A stretch of DNA of 64,000 nucleotides from NCBI GenBank assembly GCA_000004985.1, contig GG738897.1, one strand, 5' to 3'. The stretch comes from Naegleria gruberi (lineage: Eukaryota). The notes under the pieces were generated by a model, which was not told the origin of the DNA, made no database searches, and was given only the letters and a program-made list of their open reading frames with translations. Positions within the stretch are counted from its first letter, which is position 1; each line of letters begins with the position of its first letter. The position numbers and the translations under genes are program-made. Below, piece by piece: positions 45,505-55,982 of the stretch.

Positions 45505-45578
45505 CCCTTTGTAGTTCAATGGTTAGAACGTGCGACTGATCCACTCGCAAGATTCAGGTTCAACTCCTGGCAGAGGGT
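45505..45578 (+). tRNA. tRNA-like gene with an atypical 9-nt anticodon loop CTGATCCAC; paralog of 38696..38769 in inverted orientation
   Basis: CCCTTTGTAGTTCAATGGTTAGAACGTGCGACTGATCCACTCGCAAGATTCAGGTTCAACTCCTGGCAGAGGGT. It has the same scaffold as the 38696 element, differing mainly in the loop. The 3' trailer is TCCTGAATTTTGG. Confidence 0.55.
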
Positions 45579-46299: not shown

Positions 46300-48810
46300 C
46301 TACTTTTTAATGGTCAATGGATCATAATCTGGATTCAATGAGCTTCCACAAGTAGCCACTTTTCCAAAATAGGAAAATTCAGAACTAGCCATTCCAGGAA
46401 TCATCAAATCATCACTTTTTACAACTTGAATCGTATCAACATGGAAAGTTCTCAATATTGTTGATGGTTCTGTCAAACTAAATCTCAACTTTTTGAGTGA
46501 AAATGAACTTGTTGTAAACTCAGAAATTGGAATTCTTACTCGTGCTGTTGTATTGTCAATCTTGTAATTTAAAACGTGCTCCTTCTTTACAATTACTTGT
46601 TTACCGAAAGCAGTTACTGAAATATTGAGTGGTCCATAATTATCTGAAACTCTAACAAAGAATTCGAAATGAGAATAGGCAGCACCGCTCAAACCATTAG
46701 TTCTTTCAAGATAGACATCACCACTTCCCATAATCATCTTGATTGCATTACCACATAATCCTCCTTCTCCATTAACTTCATAGGAAGCATCTCCATTTCC
46801 AGTAACAGTCGAGAATGAATTCAAATTGTCTGTGAAGAAGGCATTTCCAAAAGTTCCGTAATTGACACATGAATCTGTGGCATTGGCTATTGGAGGAGGT
46901 AAGGCACATGTCGAAGTAGTCGAATTACTGCAATATAATTGAGCTCTCAAATGTCCAGTTGGATTTTGAGTGGTTGACAATTTGACAAACATTTGACCTT
47001 TCAATAGAGCTACTTGTTCTTGATAAGATAAATCAAGGAGGAAACGACTGACACCATAAGGGGATATTGGATTATCCAATCCTGGATGGATAATTCTCTC
47101 TTGAGTACCGACAGCTCCAATTCCAACTGAAATTTCAGTGGCGATTAAATTCAAATTGTGGAAAACTGTGAAATCTAAAAGTTTTGCTTTGAAATCCCAA
47201 AATGCAAAGACTTTTCCTGAGCCATTTGAGCCAATGAGGGATGAGTTGACTGCTTTTTGTTGGCAGACTTCTAAATTTCCAACAAATCGATCTTCCTTCA
47301 TTAAGGTATTGTAAACTAATTTGGAAGAAGTTGGATTACCAAATTTAGATGGAGCACAGTTATTGTTTGGACAAGTTGCAACAATTCTAATCAAACCAAC
47401 ACTATGATAATCAGAAAATGGGTAAACATTCTCAAAATCATCTCTTGGCACTCTATTTTGTAACTTGACATATAAATGCTCAGTTGTCTGATTGTAATAT
47501 GCCAATTCATTTGGTGAAACCATGACCTCAGCCAATGAACTTGCCCAAGTCACAGGATACGTATTCGAACTTCCACTTTCTGACCAAGTTATCTTGAAAT
47601 CTGTCTTATTTGGATACTGAATTGCCAACACAATCCAATCATAGTTGACTGCATTTTTCAAGCTGACGGACAAATCTCTCGGAGTTGGATGATCATTTGG
47701 CCATCTCAGTCCATAAAATCCTCTATTAAGCAAGTTATATTGTATTACCCATGTGTTATCATTACCTCCTGGGCTTCCATTGGATGGTCCTTGAATATTT
47801 CTCAATTGGTCAACCACGTACATTCTTGGTGTGATGATATTTGCGTTTTTCAATTCAGGTTGTGCAACTCCTTTGGATGAGGTAGTATTGTATGTTGTAA
47901 ACTCGTTATTTCCGACCCTGAGTTGAACGAACATTTCACCAGTTGCGGGACAACCATAAGCACTCCAATCACTATTCGAAACACAACCAGAAAAGGCGTT
48001 CAATGGATCTTGACCAACAATCCAACCTCCACTTGGAAAACCACTAATACTTCCATCCAAATCTGCCCAAATTCCCATTCTCTGGTTATCATATGGAGTA
48101 TTATTCAAGGCATAGAACTTGTTAGAATTAATAAAGGTCAACCCAAAGAGTTTGTTAACTGCTGATTCCAATTGTTTACGAGAACGATGAGAAACTGCAC
48201 CAGAGGCCTTATATGCATCTGGAATAAAGTTAATAAATGTGCAATTGTAAAGTAATTGAGGACCGTCGTCTTCATAAACTTCGTAACCACGAATGATCAA
48301 CTCATCACTTGCATAGAGTTGAGGACGAGTTCTACCACCAACGTCAACCTTTGATCTGAAACTTGAATCGCCTACATTAGAGGTCTCACCAATCATGATA
48401 GAGTTTCTTGTAATAGTTGGTCCCTTTGGTGCAGTAATTTGTACGTTATTGTCAAATGCCAAAAAGTTTTCCAAATAAAGAACTCCTCCCTTAACCCAAG
48501 CTCCATAATCTCTATTCTTGTAAGCAGTAAAACGGAAGAATGAAGCTGACCCATTCAATGGGTAGTATCCCTCAGTTTCTAATGTACCATCAGAAAGCAA
48601 CATTTCATCAATCCACAATCCAGTAATTGAGCTGTGAGCAACGTTATCTTCGAATGGAGCCATTGCTGTTCTTCTTGGATTGAAATCTTGACCTGCATAG
48701 ATGGTAGCACTCATTCCAACAGGGAAAACTGGGAAAGAGAGCCAGAATCCGAACTTACCACCCACAGCAACGTTTCCAATAAAGGTATTGTTTGGCTTTT
48801 TTATGGTTGA
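46300..48810 (-). CDS. large secreted parallel beta-helix (PbH1) repeat protein, exon 3 (CEMIP/TMEM2-like)
   Basis: 837 codons are open from the acceptor at 48810. The exon is joined to exon 2 by an unusually short 31-nt GTAAGT..TTTTAG intron (48811-48841), phase 0. Confidence 0.6.
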   Translation of the reverse strand, partial: STIKKPNNTFIGNVAVGGKFGFWLSFPVFPVGMSATIYAGQDFNPRRTAMAPFEDNVAHSSITGLWIDEMLLSDGTLETEGYYPLNGSASFFRFTAYKNRDYGAWVKGGVLYLENFLAFDNNVQITAPKGPTITRNSIMIGETSNVGDSSFRSKVDVGGRTRPQLYASDELIIRGYEVYEDDGPQLLYNCTFINFIPDAYKASGAVSHRSRKQLESAVNKLFGLTFINSNKFYALNNTPYDNQRMGIWADLDGSISGFPSGGWIVGQDPLNAFSGCVSNSDWSAYGCPATGEMFVQLRVGNNEFTTYNTTSSKGVAQPELKNANIITPRMYVVDQLRNIQGPSNGSPGGNDNTWVIQYNLLNRGFYGLRWPNDHPTPRDLSVSLKNAVNYDWIVLAIQYPNKTDFKITWSESGSSNTYPVTWASSLAEVMVSPNELAYYNQTTEHLYVKLQNRVPRDDFENVYPFSDYHSVGLIRIVATCPNNNCAPSKFGNPTSSKLVYNTLMKEDRFVGNLEVCQQKAVNSSLIGSNGSGKVFAFWDFKAKLLDFTVFHNLNLIATEISVGIGAVGTQERIIHPGLDNPISPYGVSRFLLDLSYQEQVALLKGQMFVKLSTTQNPTGHLRAQLYCSNSTTSTCALPPPIANATDSCVNYGTFGNAFFTDNLNSFSTVTGNGDASYEVNGEGGLCGNAIKMIMGSGDVYLERTNGLSGAAYSHFEFFVRVSDNYGPLNISVTAFGKQVIVKKEHVLNYKIDNTTARVRIPISEFTTSSFSLKKLRFSLTEPSTILRTFHVDTIQVVKSDDLMIPGMASSEFSYFGKVATCGSSLNPDYDPLTIKK

Positions 48811-48841
48811 CTAAAAAATTGTAAAGAACTTTCAAACTTAC

Positions 48842-49161
48842 ATTTGTAATCCAATAGACACTAGCATCACAATCCGATGGAATAATTTGTAATTGATCAG
48901 CATCTCCAACCGGATTCACTTTTACGCCTAAATTATTTCTAAATTCATTTCCAAATTCGGAACCATCTTCCAAATAAAAAGCATGACCTGTAATATTGAA
49001 ACAGATATTGTTTTTCACGAGAATGTTTCTAGAATCATGAATGACGATGCATCTTTGATAACTATTCCAAATGGCATTGTTTGCAATCATGAATTGAGTG
49101 GAAATTTGTTTGCTTGTGTCTTTTAACAAGTGAAGATGTAATCCGTATCTTCCCATTAAAC
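48842..49161 (-). CDS. secreted PbH1-repeat protein, exon 2
   Basis: The exon encodes ..IANNAIWNSYQRCIVIHDSRNILVKNNICFNITGHAFYLEDGSEFGNEFRNNLGVKVN.., a right-handed beta-helix repeat signature. A 62-nt intron (49162-49223) lies upstream. Confidence 0.6.
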
Positions 49162-49223
49162 CTAAATATGAATAAACATTTAGATTTAGAGTTGAAATTA
49201 ACTGGAAATTATTCGAAACTTAC

Positions 49224-50172
49224 CTTTTTGACCAACATTTCTCAACTCAACTCCAACAAACTGAAATTGCTTAACCAATCTAACAATCAAATGAGATCCA
49301 AAACTGGATGCATCACTTGAATCATCTCCCTTAAACACAATTCTTCTGGTCAACAATGCAACTTCTGAAAATGTGTAATCTTTACCAACGTGTGTGAAAT
49401 TTAGCGGACTTTCCAATGTCAATGTCAAACCATCAGCTGAAATTGCCTTAATAGTAGCTTTTTCATTTTGATCTGGAAAAGCAACACCTCTTTGCCAATT
49501 TCTGGAAGTGTCATTCATTATCTTGAAATCAACAACTTCACCATAATCAGTTGAAGTTAGCAAAATGTCATCGCCAACACTCCACATGCCAGTGACAGAT
49601 TCTTTCAATGTGATAGAGCTGGTATTCTTGAGTGCAGTAGCATTAAGACGTGTCCATGCCTTATCATTAATCAATTGTCCAACAACTTGAACAGTGGCAC
49701 CTGTCAAAAATGCAATTCCCTTATTTCCTAAATTAGCATTATCATATGGATCAGTACCAAGTGTATTTTCAGTAGATCTAGGACCATAAAATGTAATGGT
49801 AATCTTCTTATAGATAGGACATGAAGTACTTCCCATAATAAACGAAGCATTTCCTTCAACTCTAATGTGATTGACGTTAATATTCATGAATTTGTTGTCA
49901 AAGATTAAAGATCCACCACTTTGGACTGTGATTGAGCCATACTTGACTGGTGGGGAGGTTTTGATTAATACTTTCTGACCTGAAGTGATTACAATGGCAG
50001 ATTCAGCGACTGTGTAATTAGAAAGTGAACTAAAGTCGACTAAACCTGATTGACCGTAAGGACATGCTTGACCATTGGCAAAACCAAACCAACACGCGCT
50101 AATAACAAGAAGCGATGCTAATAAAGCTAGTAATTTCATTTTTTTTACAATGATAAGCTCTTCAAGTTCCAT
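49224..50172 (-). CDS. secreted PbH1-repeat protein, exon 1 (signal peptide, G8-like N-terminal domain)
   Basis: ATG at 50172. The signal peptide is MKLLALLASLLVISA. A Gly-rich beta region resembling a G8 domain follows. Confidence 0.55.
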
Positions 50173-50674: not shown

Positions 50675-51826
50675 TTGAGAAGAAGTGGAAAGACACTCTT
50701 TCTTCAAACCTTGTGTCCTGATACAGTTTTATATAAAGATTTATTAGAATCTGTGAGTGGGAAAGTATTGCAACATATTCTGAAAGCAATGATGATTCAT
50801 AATGTTGAGGAAAAATTATTAGAATTGATGAAAATTGTGAAAATGTTTGATGAGGATGGAGAGAAAATTTCCAAGAATTTGCAAACTTTTGTTGAATTGT
50901 ACGTGAGAAGTAATTCATTACCTGCTGAGAGACCTATTTCTTTTGTGGAATTATTGTTGGATTTGTGGAAGTTTCGAATATTTGCAGAGTTTTATTATGA
51001 GAATATGGATAGATTTTATTTTAATGAAAATTTGGAATTGTTTGTTGACAAGATGAGAATGCATCGAGAGGATGGAATACTTTTTGATCCACTTCGAATA
51101 ATTTCAAAGGAAACTCTTGGATTTACAGCAGCTGTCAAGAAATTGGATAACAATTCCATTACTATAATTGAAAATAGAGGAACAAGACCTGATACAAATC
51201 TGAATGCCAAAAAGGTATTAGTGTTAACTGTTTCCCTGGTAGATTGCATGATTTCTGTAAAGGATGAAAGCAATTTACTGAACTTGACAACATTCACTTC
51301 ATATCCAAACTCCAAATTCGATTCTGCACTTTCCTTCTTTGAAGATATTGCCAAAAGCAGAGCATTGAAAGATTTCCAACAAAACACTCGTGTCTGTATC
51401 CTCTTTACAAAAGCAGATTTACTAATGAAACGATTGGAAAAATTCGAAACCTTTCCACGACATGAAAAGGAAGAATGTAAAACAATCCAGAGAAATGAAA
51501 TTTCAAATTTGAGAAATTTCTTCATGGAACGAAATGTCATTAATTATGTAGTGAATGAATTTTATGAAATTTTACGGAAATCTGGAATGGAAAGTATTGA
51601 ATTTGATTATCACATTATTAATGCATTGAATGAGGAGGAAGTGAATCGTGCATTTGAACTCATTGTAAAACCACTCAATCAACGAGGAGTTTCGAAACAT
51701 TATCTTTCTCCATGCCTTTACAGACCTTTAGAATACATTCCAATACAATTGTACAATAATCTTAACAATCAATACCTCACTGATGTTGTCATTATTACAA
51801 ATCCATCAAGAAACCAATCATTCTAA
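50675..51826 (+). CDS. degenerate G-protein alpha-subunit-like (pseudo-GTPase) protein; the N-terminus appears frameshifted
   Basis: The in-frame upstream extension reads ..ERILLVGLRRSGKTLFLQ, a P-loop GxxxxGKT (compare LLLLGAGESGKST). NTRVCILFTKADLL stands in place of the NKxD motif. The DVGGQ switch II is replaced by ENRGTRPD. An MGQTQHTA... ORF from ATG 50538 is in a different frame and stops at 50678. Confidence 0.5.
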   Translation: MRRSGKTLFLQTLCPDTVLYKDLLESVSGKVLQHILKAMMIHNVEEKLLELMKIVKMFDEDGEKISKNLQTFVELYVRSNSLPAERPISFVELLLDLWKFRIFAEFYYENMDRFYFNENLELFVDKMRMHREDGILFDPLRIISKETLGFTAAVKKLDNNSITIIENRGTRPDTNLNAKKVLVLTVSLVDCMISVKDESNLLNLTTFTSYPNSKFDSALSFFEDIAKSRALKDFQQNTRVCILFTKADLLMKRLEKFETFPRHEKEECKTIQRNEISNLRNFFMERNVINYVVNEFYEILRKSGMESIEFDYHIINALNEEEVNRAFELIVKPLNQRGVSKHYLSPCLYRPLEYIPIQLYNNLNNQYLTDVVIITNPSRNQSF

Positions 51827-52314
51827 TTGACAAGCTAATGACAAATACTTCCAAAAAGTTTAGTCTCAACTTTCCAATAATCGACACTAACCAAAACTAA
51901 ACTCAAATCTTCAGAGTCTATTAAAGGAAATTGCAATAAATGAAACTCAACACTTTCCCCAAAAGACATCCAAAGTAAATTACCATCAAATTTAATATGT
52001 GAAATTGTCACAGCAGGAAAGAACCATTGGTGAGTTAATTTGACATTGAGCAGATCAATACTGTTAAATACTCTTCCTTTGTAAAGAGTTGGAGGATGTG
52101 GACAAGTTGCTAGTCGCCATTGAAAAGACACAACCATAAAGTCAACCAACATGCCAAGTGTCAATAATTAAAATAGAAAGGTGCCAGTTACGAAAGCCAT
52201 TTTTACATATTTGAGGTGAAGTGCGAGGTCTGCAAGCCGTTGCGTCATTATCAAACAATTTAACATTCAAAAAAAAAAGATTAATTTCACACGAAACGAA
52301 ACTATTCGAAACCA

Positions 52315-53244
52315 ATGGTCGCTTACTTTGCTTCATTAGCTTCGTTAGATAACAATTTCGAAGATTTACGACCACGTAGACCTACCAAGGTTTCTCCCAG
52401 ATCTTCCACAAGCTCTTCTCCAAGAAATAATGCTGGGGAACATTCGCCAACGAGCCAAGATTCGTCCGACATTCTTCAACTTTCTCCAACAACAAGTATG
52501 ACGAAATTACCAGTAGAAAGGACTCGTTCACATTCGAATAGTGGTAACAGTACCTATTCTTCATCTTCAGTTTCGTCGAGTGGGTCTCAGAGTGTTAGAC
52601 GAAACTCACCATTAGAAAGTCCACAACCTCTGGAAAGGTCGATTCGTGAAATGGCAAGAAATTATGTGATCAATATTGAAAAGTTCCTGTCTACCAATAA
52701 TCATGATGAAAATGAGAGCTTTTCAGAGTTTCTCAAGTCTGAATGTAATTTGGCCCCTTTAGAATTTTATCAGAAAGTAACCGAATTCACGACTAAACCG
52801 GAAAAGAAGGAATTGGCACGTTATTTGATAAAGAATTATATCAAGGAAAGAAGTAATAGTGAAATTAATATTGCAAATAATGTGAGAGAAGTCATTTTGA
52901 AGGAATATAAGGAATGCAAGCACAACAATAGTCAAGTTTCGTCTAATATTTTCGAAAAGGCCTGTAATGAAGTTAAACTGTCGCTCAAGAATGACAGTTT
53001 CACAAGATTTGTTGCCAGTGAACAATTCAGCAAGTTAATTTTGAAGAAATTCAATCAAGCAAACAAATCACTAGATTCGAATAATTCTACAGAAATATTG
53101 GAATCCATTTTCGAATCAATTGGTTCTCTCTCCCCACTTTCCTCTCCTAAATTCTCTGCTCATTCTCATCCTCAAAATATTGTAAACAAATCTTTGGATA
53201 CTATTGCAAACTCTCAAATTATTGTAACTCCTCCAAATGAGTAA
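52315..53244 (+). CDS. RGS-domain protein with a Ser-rich N-terminus
   Basis: ATG start. The RGS-like segment is (ERSIREMARNYVINIEKFL...LEFYQKVTEF...ARYLIKNYI...FEKACNEVKLSLKNDSFTRFVASEQF). Confidence 0.7.
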   Translation: MVAYFASLASLDNNFEDLRPRRPTKVSPRSSTSSSPRNNAGEHSPTSQDSSDILQLSPTTSMTKLPVERTRSHSNSGNSTYSSSSVSSSGSQSVRRNSPLESPQPLERSIREMARNYVINIEKFLSTNNHDENESFSEFLKSECNLAPLEFYQKVTEFTTKPEKKELARYLIKNYIKERSNSEINIANNVREVILKEYKECKHNNSQVSSNIFEKACNEVKLSLKNDSFTRFVASEQFSKLILKKFNQANKSLDSNNSTEILESIFESIGSLSPLSSPKFSAHSHPQNIVNKSLDTIANSQIIVTPPNE

Positions 53245-53836
53245 TTTACTTTCCAATAAGATTATTAGAATTGATAACAAGATGGAATTATAGAACTATA
53301 GCAATGCGAGTAATTGAAAAAGTGACAGAATTGTTCACTATTTCTAAAATTGTAAACTAATTTTTCAATTAAAATATTTTTGAAATTAATTTTTTTATGG
53401 TTCAATTAATGGTTAATATCTCACAGGTTGAAACTTGAAACAAAGTCTAGAGATATACACTCCAAACCAATTAACAAAGTTGATGAGATTACAAAGATTG
53501 ATCAAATTTGTTTAAGAAATGTGCTAAACGTGGATTAAAGTTCATCTATATCATTACTGTTCACCTTAATAAGACTTGCATGAACATCTCAAATAACAAA
53601 GATTCTTTCTTCCTTACCAAGGCAATTTAAGATCCAATTCTAAGGTTCAGATTCAATCTCTACGAACACTTTTAAAGTCCATTTTAAGGTTGCCACGTTC
53701 CGAAAAACAATTAAAAAAAATCTCATCAACATAAAAAGCCTTAACGTTTTTAAAAAAAACACATCACGAGCCATCACAACAAACCGCCACCTTAAACCTT
53801 AGCCGCTAGAACGATAACAAACAATTCTCAAGAAAA

Positions 53837-55015
53837 ATGTCCTCCATCACACAACGGGAAGCACCACCTTACACTAGAATTCAATATGTTTCGCTTTCAA
53901 CTCTTGGGGTCATCACGGAAAAGATGAAGACTAAGATATTAACAGTGGCTACTAAGGAAAATTCCAAGCACAATATTACTGGAGTTTTGATTTGTGTGAG
54001 GGATATGTTCTTTCAGATTATTGAAGGAAAGACTGCTGATATTGAACAATTATTTGCAAATATTGTCAATGATTCGAGACATAATAATGTTGCATGTGTC
54101 GACAAGTCGTATTTTGAAAGTGAGGATGATAGAATGTTTCCTTCGTGGGATATGAAATCAATTGAGGTTGATTGTTTGTTTCCTACCAAGAAGGATGTAT
54201 TGATTTGTGGGGAAAATTGTAATCCACTCGATCCAACTCATAAGAGAGTTATTGAGACTGCATTCTCTGCTTTTACAACAATGATGGGAAGTATGTTCAG
54301 AGCTCAACAAGTGTTCAAGAATTATGCCCAACCAAGTGTAACCAAATTTGTTAGGGATGGATTGAATCCTCTCTGTATTCAATCTGTTGTTACGGAAAAG
54401 ATTGTAGTTTTTATTGACCTTGTAAATTATACCACCTTGACAGAAATCATTTCTCAATCGAGAAGCGTTGCAGAAATTGTAAGAATTCTCAACTTGTTCT
54501 TTGCCTGCGTTATGGAAATTGTCGAAGAGCACGGTGGAGACATTACCAAGTTGATTGGTGACTGTGTAATGTGTCATTTTGATGGGAAAGATTCACAAAA
54601 GGCCATTGATTGTTCGTTGAAAATATTGGAACGATTAGACCATCTCAGATATGAAACAACAGATCCATTCGAAAAGCTCATCTACTGTACAATAGGAATC
54701 TCGAAGGGTGAGGTCATTTTGGGAAATGTTGGCACAGTTGGAAGAAAGCTTGACTATACAGTCATTGGTGATTCAGTAAACACATCAGCAAGATTACAAT
54801 CCTTTGCCTCCACTACTCAATACTATCTCATTTTCGATGAGAATGTAAAGAATGATTTGATTAATGAAGATTATGTAATATCGTGTGGTTCGATTGAATT
54901 GAAAGGAAAGAGAAATACAGTCAATGCCTACACAATAGAGAATGTATATAATAGAAAACCTCAGAAAGAAGATTTGAATGGTCTTTTCAATGTGTGTTCT
55001 TTATCAATATTGTAA
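53837..55015 (+). CDS. BLUF domain + class III adenylyl/guanylyl cyclase (photoactivated adenylyl cyclase-type protein)
   Basis: N-terminal BLUF signature: YTRIQYVSLS...NITGVLICVRDMFFQIIEGK...NDSRHNNVACVD...FPSWDM. C-terminal cyclase homology domain: VVFIDLVNYTTL...HGGDITKLIGDCVMCHF...IGISKGEVILGNVGTVGRKLDYTVIGDSVNTSARLQS. Confidence 0.85.
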   Translation: MSSITQREAPPYTRIQYVSLSTLGVITEKMKTKILTVATKENSKHNITGVLICVRDMFFQIIEGKTADIEQLFANIVNDSRHNNVACVDKSYFESEDDRMFPSWDMKSIEVDCLFPTKKDVLICGENCNPLDPTHKRVIETAFSAFTTMMGSMFRAQQVFKNYAQPSVTKFVRDGLNPLCIQSVVTEKIVVFIDLVNYTTLTEIISQSRSVAEIVRILNLFFACVMEIVEEHGGDITKLIGDCVMCHFDGKDSQKAIDCSLKILERLDHLRYETTDPFEKLIYCTIGISKGEVILGNVGTVGRKLDYTVIGDSVNTSARLQSFASTTQYYLIFDENVKNDLINEDYVISCGSIELKGKRNTVNAYTIENVYNRKPQKEDLNGLFNVCSLSIL

Positions 55016-55043
55016 ATAAACTTTTTAAAAAAATGTCAAAAAA

Positions 55044-55982
55044 ATGTCTCGTGTCGTAGTGGAACTTGTTGATTTAAATGTCGTGGAAAATTCATCATCA
55101 TCAGATCATATTATTTATTTAATTAATATATTGAAGAGATCATTTACAAAAAAAAAACATCAATTTTCGTTGAATTTTAACATGATTGGTCAATTTGATC
55201 AACTTTCTCCAAAAGATCCTGTCTTTGATATTGCCATTTCCAAAAAATATGACACGATACTCATTCCACAGAGGGTTGGTATATCAATTTATAATAGACC
55301 AAGCAGTCGGGAAACTTTCCATCTCGAGCAATTATTCAAAGTAGAGAAACCCAATTCTGGGCTTCGTTGTATGAAATTGGTTGAAGAGGAAGGAGAGGAA
55401 TTTATCTATGCAACAGATTACTCAAGCACTGTTGTTAAATTTAGTGTTTCGGATATTATGATACGAAAAGTATTTTCAATTATTTGGCAATCTGAATCAT
55501 TTTCTAATTTGTGGGGATTGGATGTTTTGAATGGAAAAGTTTATGCAGTTGACAATATGAAGTCAGTTAAAATTTTGGATTGCAAAAGTGGTGCAACTAT
55601 TTCAGAAAATGCTCCAAATGTAGCAGAAGGATACGGTATTCATTTCTTGTCAGAGAAACAAGCAGTAGTAAGCAACTCAAAGAAAGTGGAAATATTCGAA
55701 AGGGACAATTTTGGTAATTGGAATTCCATCAAACAAACTCAATTTCCAATGGAAGCTGCTTATTCAATTTTCTGTGAAGAATCATCCGGATTAATCTATG
55801 TTTGTGATGATTCTAAATTACATGGATTGAATATTCATGTGGTAAGACAGAATGATTTGACATTGGTGAAATCATTTCCAATTCCTTCCTTGCATTTTGG
55901 TGTTATGGTGGACGATAAAAGTGGATTGCTGTATGTGTGCCATTATGAAAGTTCGAAAATGCAGGTTAATGTTTATGAATAA
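55044..55982 (+). CDS. hypothetical protein, possibly a beta-propeller (NHL/TolB-like repeats)
   Basis: 312 aa with an ATG start. Repeats of the ..LIYVCDDSKLHGLNIHVV / GLLYVCHYESSKMQVNVYE type are present. Confidence 0.4.
   Translation: MSRVVVELVDLNVVENSSSSDHIIYLINILKRSFTKKKHQFSLNFNMIGQFDQLSPKDPVFDIAISKKYDTILIPQRVGISIYNRPSSRETFHLEQLFKVEKPNSGLRCMKLVEEEGEEFIYATDYSSTVVKFSVSDIMIRKVFSIIWQSESFSNLWGLDVLNGKVYAVDNMKSVKILDCKSGATISENAPNVAEGYGIHFLSEKQAVVSNSKKVEIFERDNFGNWNSIKQTQFPMEAAYSIFCEESSGLIYVCDDSKLHGLNIHVVRQNDLTLVKSFPIPSLHFGVMVDDKSGLLYVCHYESSKMQVNVYE

Follow-up and report, generated by a model that had tools for sequence, protein, structure and literature searches.

What protein is encoded at positions 53837..55015 (+ strand) of a 64,000-nucleotide stretch of Naegleria gruberi DNA (contig GG738897.1 of GenBank assembly GCA_000004985.1; the whole stretch is called the window below), and is it new? 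The original prediction, made from the sequence alone, held that a BLUF photoreceptor domain is fused here to a class III nucleotidyl cyclase, giving a light-activated enzyme of the photoactivated adenylyl cyclase (PAC) type. The coordinates and motifs of the open reading frame (ORF) at this locus match that prediction far above chance, and searches with domain profiles, solved-structure sequences and folds agreed with a residue alignment on the PAC assignment. We put the probability at about 95% that the ORF is the N. gruberi NgPAC2 gene, encoding a soluble PAC of the short type represented by bPAC and OaPAC.

NgPAC2 of N. gruberi NEG-M is already CHARACTERISED, and the feature is known rather than new. 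As the enzyme has been cloned, spectroscopically characterised and tested in human cells, re-finding its gene adds no new biology. Its photodynamics are reportedly the subject of a study by Penzkofer et al. in 2013 (Chem Phys 412:96). Heterologous expression followed by an assay of light-dependent cyclic AMP (cAMP) production, which had been proposed as a check on the prediction, has likewise been published for NgPAC2 itself. Short PACs have found wide use as tools for raising cAMP by light, in cells as well as in animals. Few of them are eukaryotic, and those of Naegleria belong to this minority, N. gruberi itself being a non-photosynthetic soil amoeba. The database entries XP_002672444.1 and D2VTR5 are listed as 'predicted protein', so their link to the name NgPAC2 deserves to be noted.

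Identity of the open reading frame

The ORF listing gave a single unbroken, intron-less frame at 53837..55015 (+), which starts with ATG, encodes 392 amino acids and ends with a TAA stop; an in-frame stop codon lies 10 codons 5' of the ATG. The translation was found to be identical over all 392 residues to the N. gruberi protein XP_002672444.1 (EFC39700.1, NAEGRDRAFT_72396, UniProt D2VTR5), which is still annotated as "predicted protein" or "uncharacterized protein". The ORF listing, the full-length protein identity and the termini encoded by published primers together mark this interval as the complete NgPAC2 coding sequence.

The name was assigned by translating the published cloning primers (Tanwar et al. 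2017, PMC5608697, supplementary Table S1). The NgPAC2 forward primer translates to M-S-S-I-T plus the CA that opens a glutamine codon, and the reverse complement of the reverse primer to S-I-L-T-Y-E; the window protein has the N-terminus MSSITQ and the C-terminus SIL, which fit these primers. NgPAC1 (MSSIQE...LEM) and NgPAC3 (MPTMNN...ALTEYC) were rejected as identities of the ORF on account of their mismatching primer-encoded ends. The third member of the 90% cluster (UniParc UPI000392399A, 395 amino acids; P0122) consists of the ORF protein with TYE added at the C-terminus, and is the cloned NgPAC2 construct. It is the match of the primer-encoded termini and the agreement of this deposit with the ORF protein plus TYE that identify the ORF as NgPAC2.

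When the 64-kb window was searched by tblastn with NgPAC2, the query matched itself only and no further PAC copy was found, so the gene is not part of a tandem family. Two antisense ORFs, at 54013..54189 (-) and 54158..54577 (-), lie inside this well-supported gene and were taken as chance.

The BLUF sensor domain

The original prediction had named a profile search as its decisive trial; when this was run, both domains scored above threshold. The Pfam BLUF profile (PF04940) matched amino acids 14-107 almost from end to end (profile positions 3-92 of 92) and scored 79.9 bits (E=1.5e-22), where the cut-off is 25; all of the BLUF motifs quoted in the prediction were located in the protein. This flavin-binding blue-light sensor is encoded at 53876..54157 (+), and its secondary structure elements were modelled in the order beta-alpha-beta-beta-alpha-beta-beta.

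Individual residues were assessed in an alignment (A1) of 14 PACs, made up of NgPAC2, two PACs of N. australiensis and 11 single-unit PACs from bacteria and metagenomes. The beta1 motif YTRIQYVS (amino acids 12-19; 53870..53893 (+)) contains Tyr17, the counterpart of OaPAC Y6 and the predicted electron and proton donor to the flavin, which was invariant (14/14). Gln60, the counterpart of OaPAC Q48 and the putative hydrogen-bond switch, was present in 13 of the 14 proteins; it lies within ITGVLICVRDMFFQIIEG (amino acids 47-64; 53975..54028 (+)), in a region that aligns with FFQILEG of OaPAC. The DSRH motif is found at amino acids 79-82. The beta5 motif FPSWDM (amino acids 101-106; 54137..54154 (+)), aligned with MFPDWSM of OaPAC, carries Trp104 and Met106, which correspond to OaPAC W90 and M92, would form the output side of the domain and are both invariant.

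All of the BLUF photocycle residues (Y17, the putative flavin-contacting N42, Q60, W104 and M106) are thus present in NgPAC2 according to the alignment. Across both domains, Y17, N42, W104, M106, D194, K238, D242, D306, T308 and N315 were invariant among the 14 PACs, and Q60, R319 and K358 nearly so. Only one column was found in which NgPAC2 alone differs: it has Phe73 where all 13 other PACs have tyrosine. The part of Tanwar et al. (PMC5608697) that cites Penzkofer et al. 2013 describes NgPAC2 as having typical BLUF photochemistry with slower dark recovery.

The cyclase domain and its substrate

The C-terminal cyclase that had been predicted was recovered by the Pfam Guanylate_cyc profile (PF00211), which matched amino acids 190-368 with 58.5 bits (cut-off 21.9; E=8.9e-16) over profile positions 11-182 of 183. 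The corresponding class III adenylyl cyclase catalytic domain is encoded at 54404..54940 (+) and superposes on the bPAC cyclase domain (PDB 5mbg). Its first metal-binding aspartate, Asp194 (invariant in A1), lies in FIDLVNYT (54410..54433 (+)), while KLIGDCVM (54548..54571 (+)) carries both the putative adenine-recognising Lys238, equivalent to bPAC K197, and the second metal-binding aspartate, Asp242, again both invariant. The segment LDYTVIGDSVNTSAR (54749..54793 (+)) contains Asp306 and Thr308 (bPAC D265 and T267), predicted to set base specificity, and Asn315 and Arg319 (the latter equivalent to bPAC R278), predicted to act in the transition state; of these four residues, R319 is nearly invariant and the others fully so. 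Within it, the GDxVNxxAR signature appears as GDSVNTSAR (amino acids 311-319; 54767..54793), so that both the metal-binding aspartate and the motif named in the prediction are present. Further downstream, ELKGK (54896..54910 (+)) includes Lys358 in a nearly invariant trio (K356, G357 and K358). From general knowledge of class III cyclases, Lys358 presumably contacts phosphate.

Since PF00211 takes in both adenylyl and guanylyl cyclases, the profile match would also suit a guanylyl cyclase, or another nucleotidyl cyclase, that is activated by light. Mutagenesis of bPAC has assigned K197, T267 and R278 to substrate binding, base recognition and the transition state (PMC8522238), and the triple change K197E/D265K/T267G is required to turn bPAC into a guanylyl cyclase with a preference for guanosine triphosphate (PMC4569695). 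The equivalent trio in NgPAC2, Lys238, Asp306 and Thr308, is kept, and cAMP output has been measured for the enzyme (PMC5608697), which leaves a guanylyl cyclase exceedingly improbable. Because the adenine trio is conserved, NgPAC2 is predicted to use adenosine triphosphate (ATP).

Structural model and proposed mechanism

Among the sequences of solved structures, the best matches to NgPAC2 were OaPAC (E=2.1e-61) and bPAC (E=2.1e-56), each aligned through both domains. An AlphaFold2 model of the NgPAC2 monomer, built on alignment A1, had a mean predicted local distance difference test score (pLDDT) of 83.4 and a predicted template modelling score (pTM) of 0.71. When the model was compared with the PDB using Foldseek, the top full-length matches were bPAC (5m2a, E=3e-36) and OaPAC (E about 1e-35), with alignments of 376-383 columns. 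The isolated bPAC cyclase domain (5mbg) fitted the model with a template modelling (TM) score of 0.91 and a root-mean-square deviation (rmsd) of 2.1 Å.

In a single chain the order of elements is BLUF domain, long alpha3 helix, handle and cyclase, with a 24-amino-acid segment ahead of the helix. The alpha3 linker helix (amino acids 133-163) and the handle (amino acids 166-189) are encoded at 54233..54403 (+), helices being modelled at 133-163 and 166-173, and this linker region aligns with OaPAC from residue 111 and with bPAC from residue 113. The same layout of one BLUF domain, alpha3, handle and one class III cyclase in approximately 350-390 amino acids is found in bPAC/BlaC of Beggiatoa (PDB 5m27, 5m2a) and OaPAC of Oscillatoria acuminata (PDB 4yus, 5x4t), and all functional residues of these two enzymes are common to NgPAC2. 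They differ from it in sequence, with only about 30% identity (approximately 30-37% for bacterial PACs overall), and in host, NgPAC2 being carried by a eukaryote.

With the domain content, residue conservation, fold and Naegleria identity of NgPAC2 established in this analysis, a mechanism can be proposed by homology to bPAC and OaPAC, from which the dimer, the relay through a coiled coil and the roles of individual residues are inferred; for both enzymes a parallel homodimer is known from crystal structures (PMC6937261). The N-terminal BLUF domain would hold the flavin, and blue light would cause the transfer of an electron and a proton between Tyr17 and the flavin and a rearrangement of the hydrogen bonds around Gln60. 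The signal would then leave by way of beta5 (Trp104 and Met106) and enter the long alpha3 helix, which would pair as a coiled coil with alpha3 of the second subunit, and on through the handle, opening the cyclase dimer. Two active sites would arise where the two cyclase domains meet. There, two divalent metal ions would be bound by Asp194 and Asp242, adenine would be selected by Lys238 together with Asp306 and Thr308, and Asn315 and Arg319 would stabilise the transition state during conversion of ATP to cAMP.

Published activity and departures from bacterial PACs

NgPAC2 gave a moderate light-induced rise in cAMP in HEK-293T lysates, the rise being approximately 14-fold for NgPAC1, 34-fold for NgPAC3 and 10-fold for bPAC (PMC5608697). 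Passages of the same paper also report light-induced cyclase activity of NgPAC2 in vitro.

Several points have to be set against the identification of the ORF as NgPAC2, a working short PAC. The name is based on five N-terminal and three C-terminal residues and the TYE deposit, with no published accession, and a literature search for XP_002672444, D2VTR5, NAEGRDRAFT_72396 and EFC39700 found no paper citing any of them. The whole-chain rmsd between the monomer model and the crystal structures is approximately 16 Å, so the relative placement of the domains is model-only; a deviation of this size is to be anticipated when a protein that is an obligate dimer is modelled as a monomer. Finally, of the three NgPACs compared in HEK-293T cells, NgPAC2 had the weakest light response (PMC5608697), and for this reason the activity of its homodimer may be low.

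The weak response bears on a different account of the protein, in which NgPAC2 serves mainly as a regulatory or partner subunit in putative mixed NgPAC dimers, comparable to Euglena PAC alpha and beta, or is tuned by a cysteine-containing insert. Besides its low cAMP output, NgPAC2 ranked last among the NgPACs in CREB phosphorylation and in the Cox-2 and prostaglandin E2 (PGE2) responses, and N. gruberi is reported to possess four PAC genes, NgPAC1 to NgPAC4 (Tanwar et al. 2017, PMC5608697). Three cysteines stand in the insert at amino acids 112-135, directly ahead of the signalling helix, and the unique Phe73 may be counted on the same side. However, the catalytic, metal-binding and specificity residues are all intact, so NgPAC2 is not a dead enzyme; when present alone in HEK-293T cells it raised cAMP, as it reportedly did in vitro too, and its weak activity in human cells may stem from expression, folding or temperature. 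We regard a mainly regulatory role as unlikely, and retain the identification of NgPAC2 as a light-activated adenylyl cyclase in its own right.

The Naegleria proteins depart from the bacterial PACs in several respects: they have 10 extra N-terminal residues, approximately 24 extra residues between BLUF beta5 and alpha3, a four-residue SQSR insert past the first metal-binding aspartate, and a GTVGRK loop that is longer by one residue. The addition ahead of alpha3, DCLFPTKKDVLICGENCNPLDPTH (amino acids 112-135; 54170..54241 (+)), was delimited in A1 between beta5 and the linker helix and contains three of the 13 cysteines of NgPAC2. It was missing from all 11 bacterial-type PACs, complete in N. 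australiensis PAC1 and half present in PAC2, 12 of its residues being confined to NgPAC2 and PAC1; model confidence over the insert was low (pLDDT 57-64). At the other end of the protein, a C-terminal tail of 24 amino acids (54941..55012 (+)) with a predicted helix at 377-391 showed no conservation outside Naegleria. The tail of OaPAC lowers the activity of that enzyme (PMC6937261), a comparison which for the NgPAC2 tail may be drawn by analogy only. NgPAC2 also has Leu239 in place of bPAC Phe198, the residue that gates access of K197 to ATP (PMC8522238). The insert, Leu239, Phe73 and the C-terminal tail are candidate causes of the weak activity of NgPAC2, not findings, and such residue-level differences from bPAC can be tested.

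Relatives and origin of the gene

One close relative is a PAC of N. australiensis (UniProt W0SLB1, P0002; Yasukawa et al. 2013), with 77% identity to NgPAC2 over 98% of the length. It has the 112-135 insert in full, as well as the SQSR insert and the cysteine pattern of NgPAC2. A second N. australiensis PAC (W0SQL6, P0003) is 54% identical and differs in having an N-terminal extension of approximately 100 amino acids and in missing 12 residues of the insert. By neighbour-joining, the three Naegleria proteins formed a clade with 100% bootstrap support among the single-unit PACs, and the cluster at 50% identity to which NgPAC2 belongs has an N. australiensis PAC as its representative. Protein searches with NgPAC2 and N. 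australiensis PAC2 retrieved one N. gruberi BLUF-cyclase cluster only and none of NgPAC1, NgPAC3 or NgPAC4, the gene models of which may be missing from public protein sets.

The architecture had been described as rare in eukaryotes and known there from Euglena and Naegleria. Its rarity was borne out by an exhaustive HMMER search over 1.84 billion cluster representatives, in which only 67 reached E<=1e-30, but the named range proved too narrow, as a diplonemid and an apusomonad must be added to it. Besides Naegleria, the named eukaryotic relatives were the double-unit PACs of Euglena stellata (Q6L886), E. longa, E. gracilis (P84739), the diplonemid Rhynchopus euleeides and the apusomonad Thecamonas trahens (XP_013758351). 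Those of E. stellata, E. gracilis, R. euleeides and T. trahens resemble NgPAC2 in being eukaryotic proteins with a BLUF domain followed by a class III cyclase. The double-unit PACs carry two BLUF-cyclase units per chain of 718-1335 amino acids, whereas NgPAC2 has one BLUF and one cyclase stretch against their four stretches and is not of the Euglena double-unit type. The Euglena PAC layout was seen in the T. trahens protein (P0155, 1335 amino acids), which is annotated merely as 'adenylate cyclase', and in the R. euleeides protein (P0147, 807 amino acids).

Measured per unit against NgPAC2, bacterial-type PACs scored 180-200 bits with 29-37% identity, compared with 70-115 bits and 20-27% identity for the double-unit PACs. 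The sequences labelled as bacterial in the tree are mostly unnamed environmental sequences of bacterial PAC length, a few of them with bacterial names. In the neighbour-joining tree, the double-unit PACs lay outside the group containing Naegleria, but this separation of single- and double-unit PACs was weakly supported, in only 73 of 200 resamplings, and Naegleria grouped with the double-unit PACs in 33 of 200. The per-unit scores and identities favour bacterial-type single-unit PACs as the relatives of the Naegleria enzymes, and no horizontal transfer is claimed from them.

Two further proteins were encountered in these searches. One, of 742 amino acids (P0156), comes from an assembly derived from the Sequence Read Archive (SRA) and combines a single BLUF-cyclase unit with a low-complexity tail of approximately 380 amino acids rich in Gln, Asn, Ser and Lys, which gives it a eukaryotic look. 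It has 34% per-unit identity to NgPAC2, was a weak sister of the Naegleria clade (31/100 resamplings) and may be another eukaryotic short PAC. The other, a BLUF protein of N. fowleri (P0143, 354 amino acids), is homologous to NgPAC2 over amino acids 11-290 with 29% identity and has an intact BLUF domain; in contrast to NgPAC2, its cyclase half is degenerate, LIGDCVM being replaced by LMESSVM with loss of the metal-binding GD motif, and Pfam matches no cyclase domain in it. The pathogenic species has here a BLUF protein whose output domain is either dead or put to another use.

That the nearest relatives outside Naegleria are single-unit PACs of bacterial type, at 29-37% identity, could be explained by bacterial contamination of the assembly, and the N. 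fowleri protein, its BLUF domain kept and its cyclase signature gone, shows what a decaying remnant in this genus could look like. The surroundings of the gene do not fit contamination: it is flanked by genes of eukaryotic type (RGS, G-alpha-like, START and SIR2), its GC content of 0.36 and its GC content at third codon positions (GC3) of 0.34 are near those of its neighbours and the window (0.34), and the XP_002672444.1 record sits on a contig of 326,913 bp. In addition, an independent contig from a soil-type metagenome (ENA ERZ929261; L001 1..1365) contains the NgPAC2 gene and the start of the downstream gene with 99.5% DNA identity. A remnant does not fit either, the cyclase half of NgPAC2 being fully intact. 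Both possibilities are thus refuted by the genes on either side and by the preserved catalytic residues; we assign them a negligible likelihood, and the ORF is retained as a functional Naegleria gene. The metagenome contig differs from the window at 7 of 1365 bases, with the amino acid changes Y272N and S387T, so a very closely related strain of N. gruberi must have been present in that sample.

Genomic neighbourhood

Upstream of NgPAC2, the ORF at 52315..53244 (+) corresponds to the Naegleria RGS-domain protein XP_002672443.1. It is preceded by a divergent G-alpha-like ORF at 50675..51826 (+), which matched PF00503 with 44.5 bits, below the cut-off of 48.8, and had no match among PDB sequences. 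G-alpha-like, RGS and PAC genes therefore stand in a row on the + strand (50675..55015), an arrangement that could be due to chance in a signalling-rich genome or could mark a functional neighbourhood. Searches with the G-alpha-like ORF and with the ORF downstream of NgPAC2 found no functional link to the PAC.

A more far-reaching suggestion would be that the 112-135 insert serves as a further input site, responsive for instance to redox state or metals, which gates the light signal, and that the gene row reflects a functional link from G-protein signalling to light-driven cAMP. If true, such an input site would account for the weak and slowly recovering response of NgPAC2. What prompts both ideas is the position of the insert and of the genes in the sequence, and we consider the combination very unlikely.

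The downstream ORF (55013..55982 (+), 312 amino acids) starts 29 nucleotides past the PAC stop codon, and an AATAAA signal overlaps that stop; from this spacing, the 3' end of the PAC transcript and the 5' end of its neighbour overlap or are extremely short. The 312-amino-acid protein had no Pfam match and, in the PDB, only insignificant matches to LDL-receptor beta-propellers (E>=0.16). Its exact translation was absent from the protein collection searched, which indicates that the public gene model differs.

The other neighbours in the window are also eukaryotic in type and include START, SIR2 and G8/CEMIP-like ORFs. A tRNA at 45505..45578 (+), detected by Rfam with 55.4 bits, has a nine-nucleotide anticodon loop (CTGATCCAC) and C1-G72 as its first pair. 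ARAGORN called it as Asp with anticodon ATC, which is doubtful; the locus could be a tRNA pseudogene or encode an atypical tRNA. On the opposite strand, at 46300..50172 (-), two ORFs follow one another head to tail, one with a G8 domain (49198..50172) and the other CEMIP-like (46300..48765), and are probably one intron-split gene.

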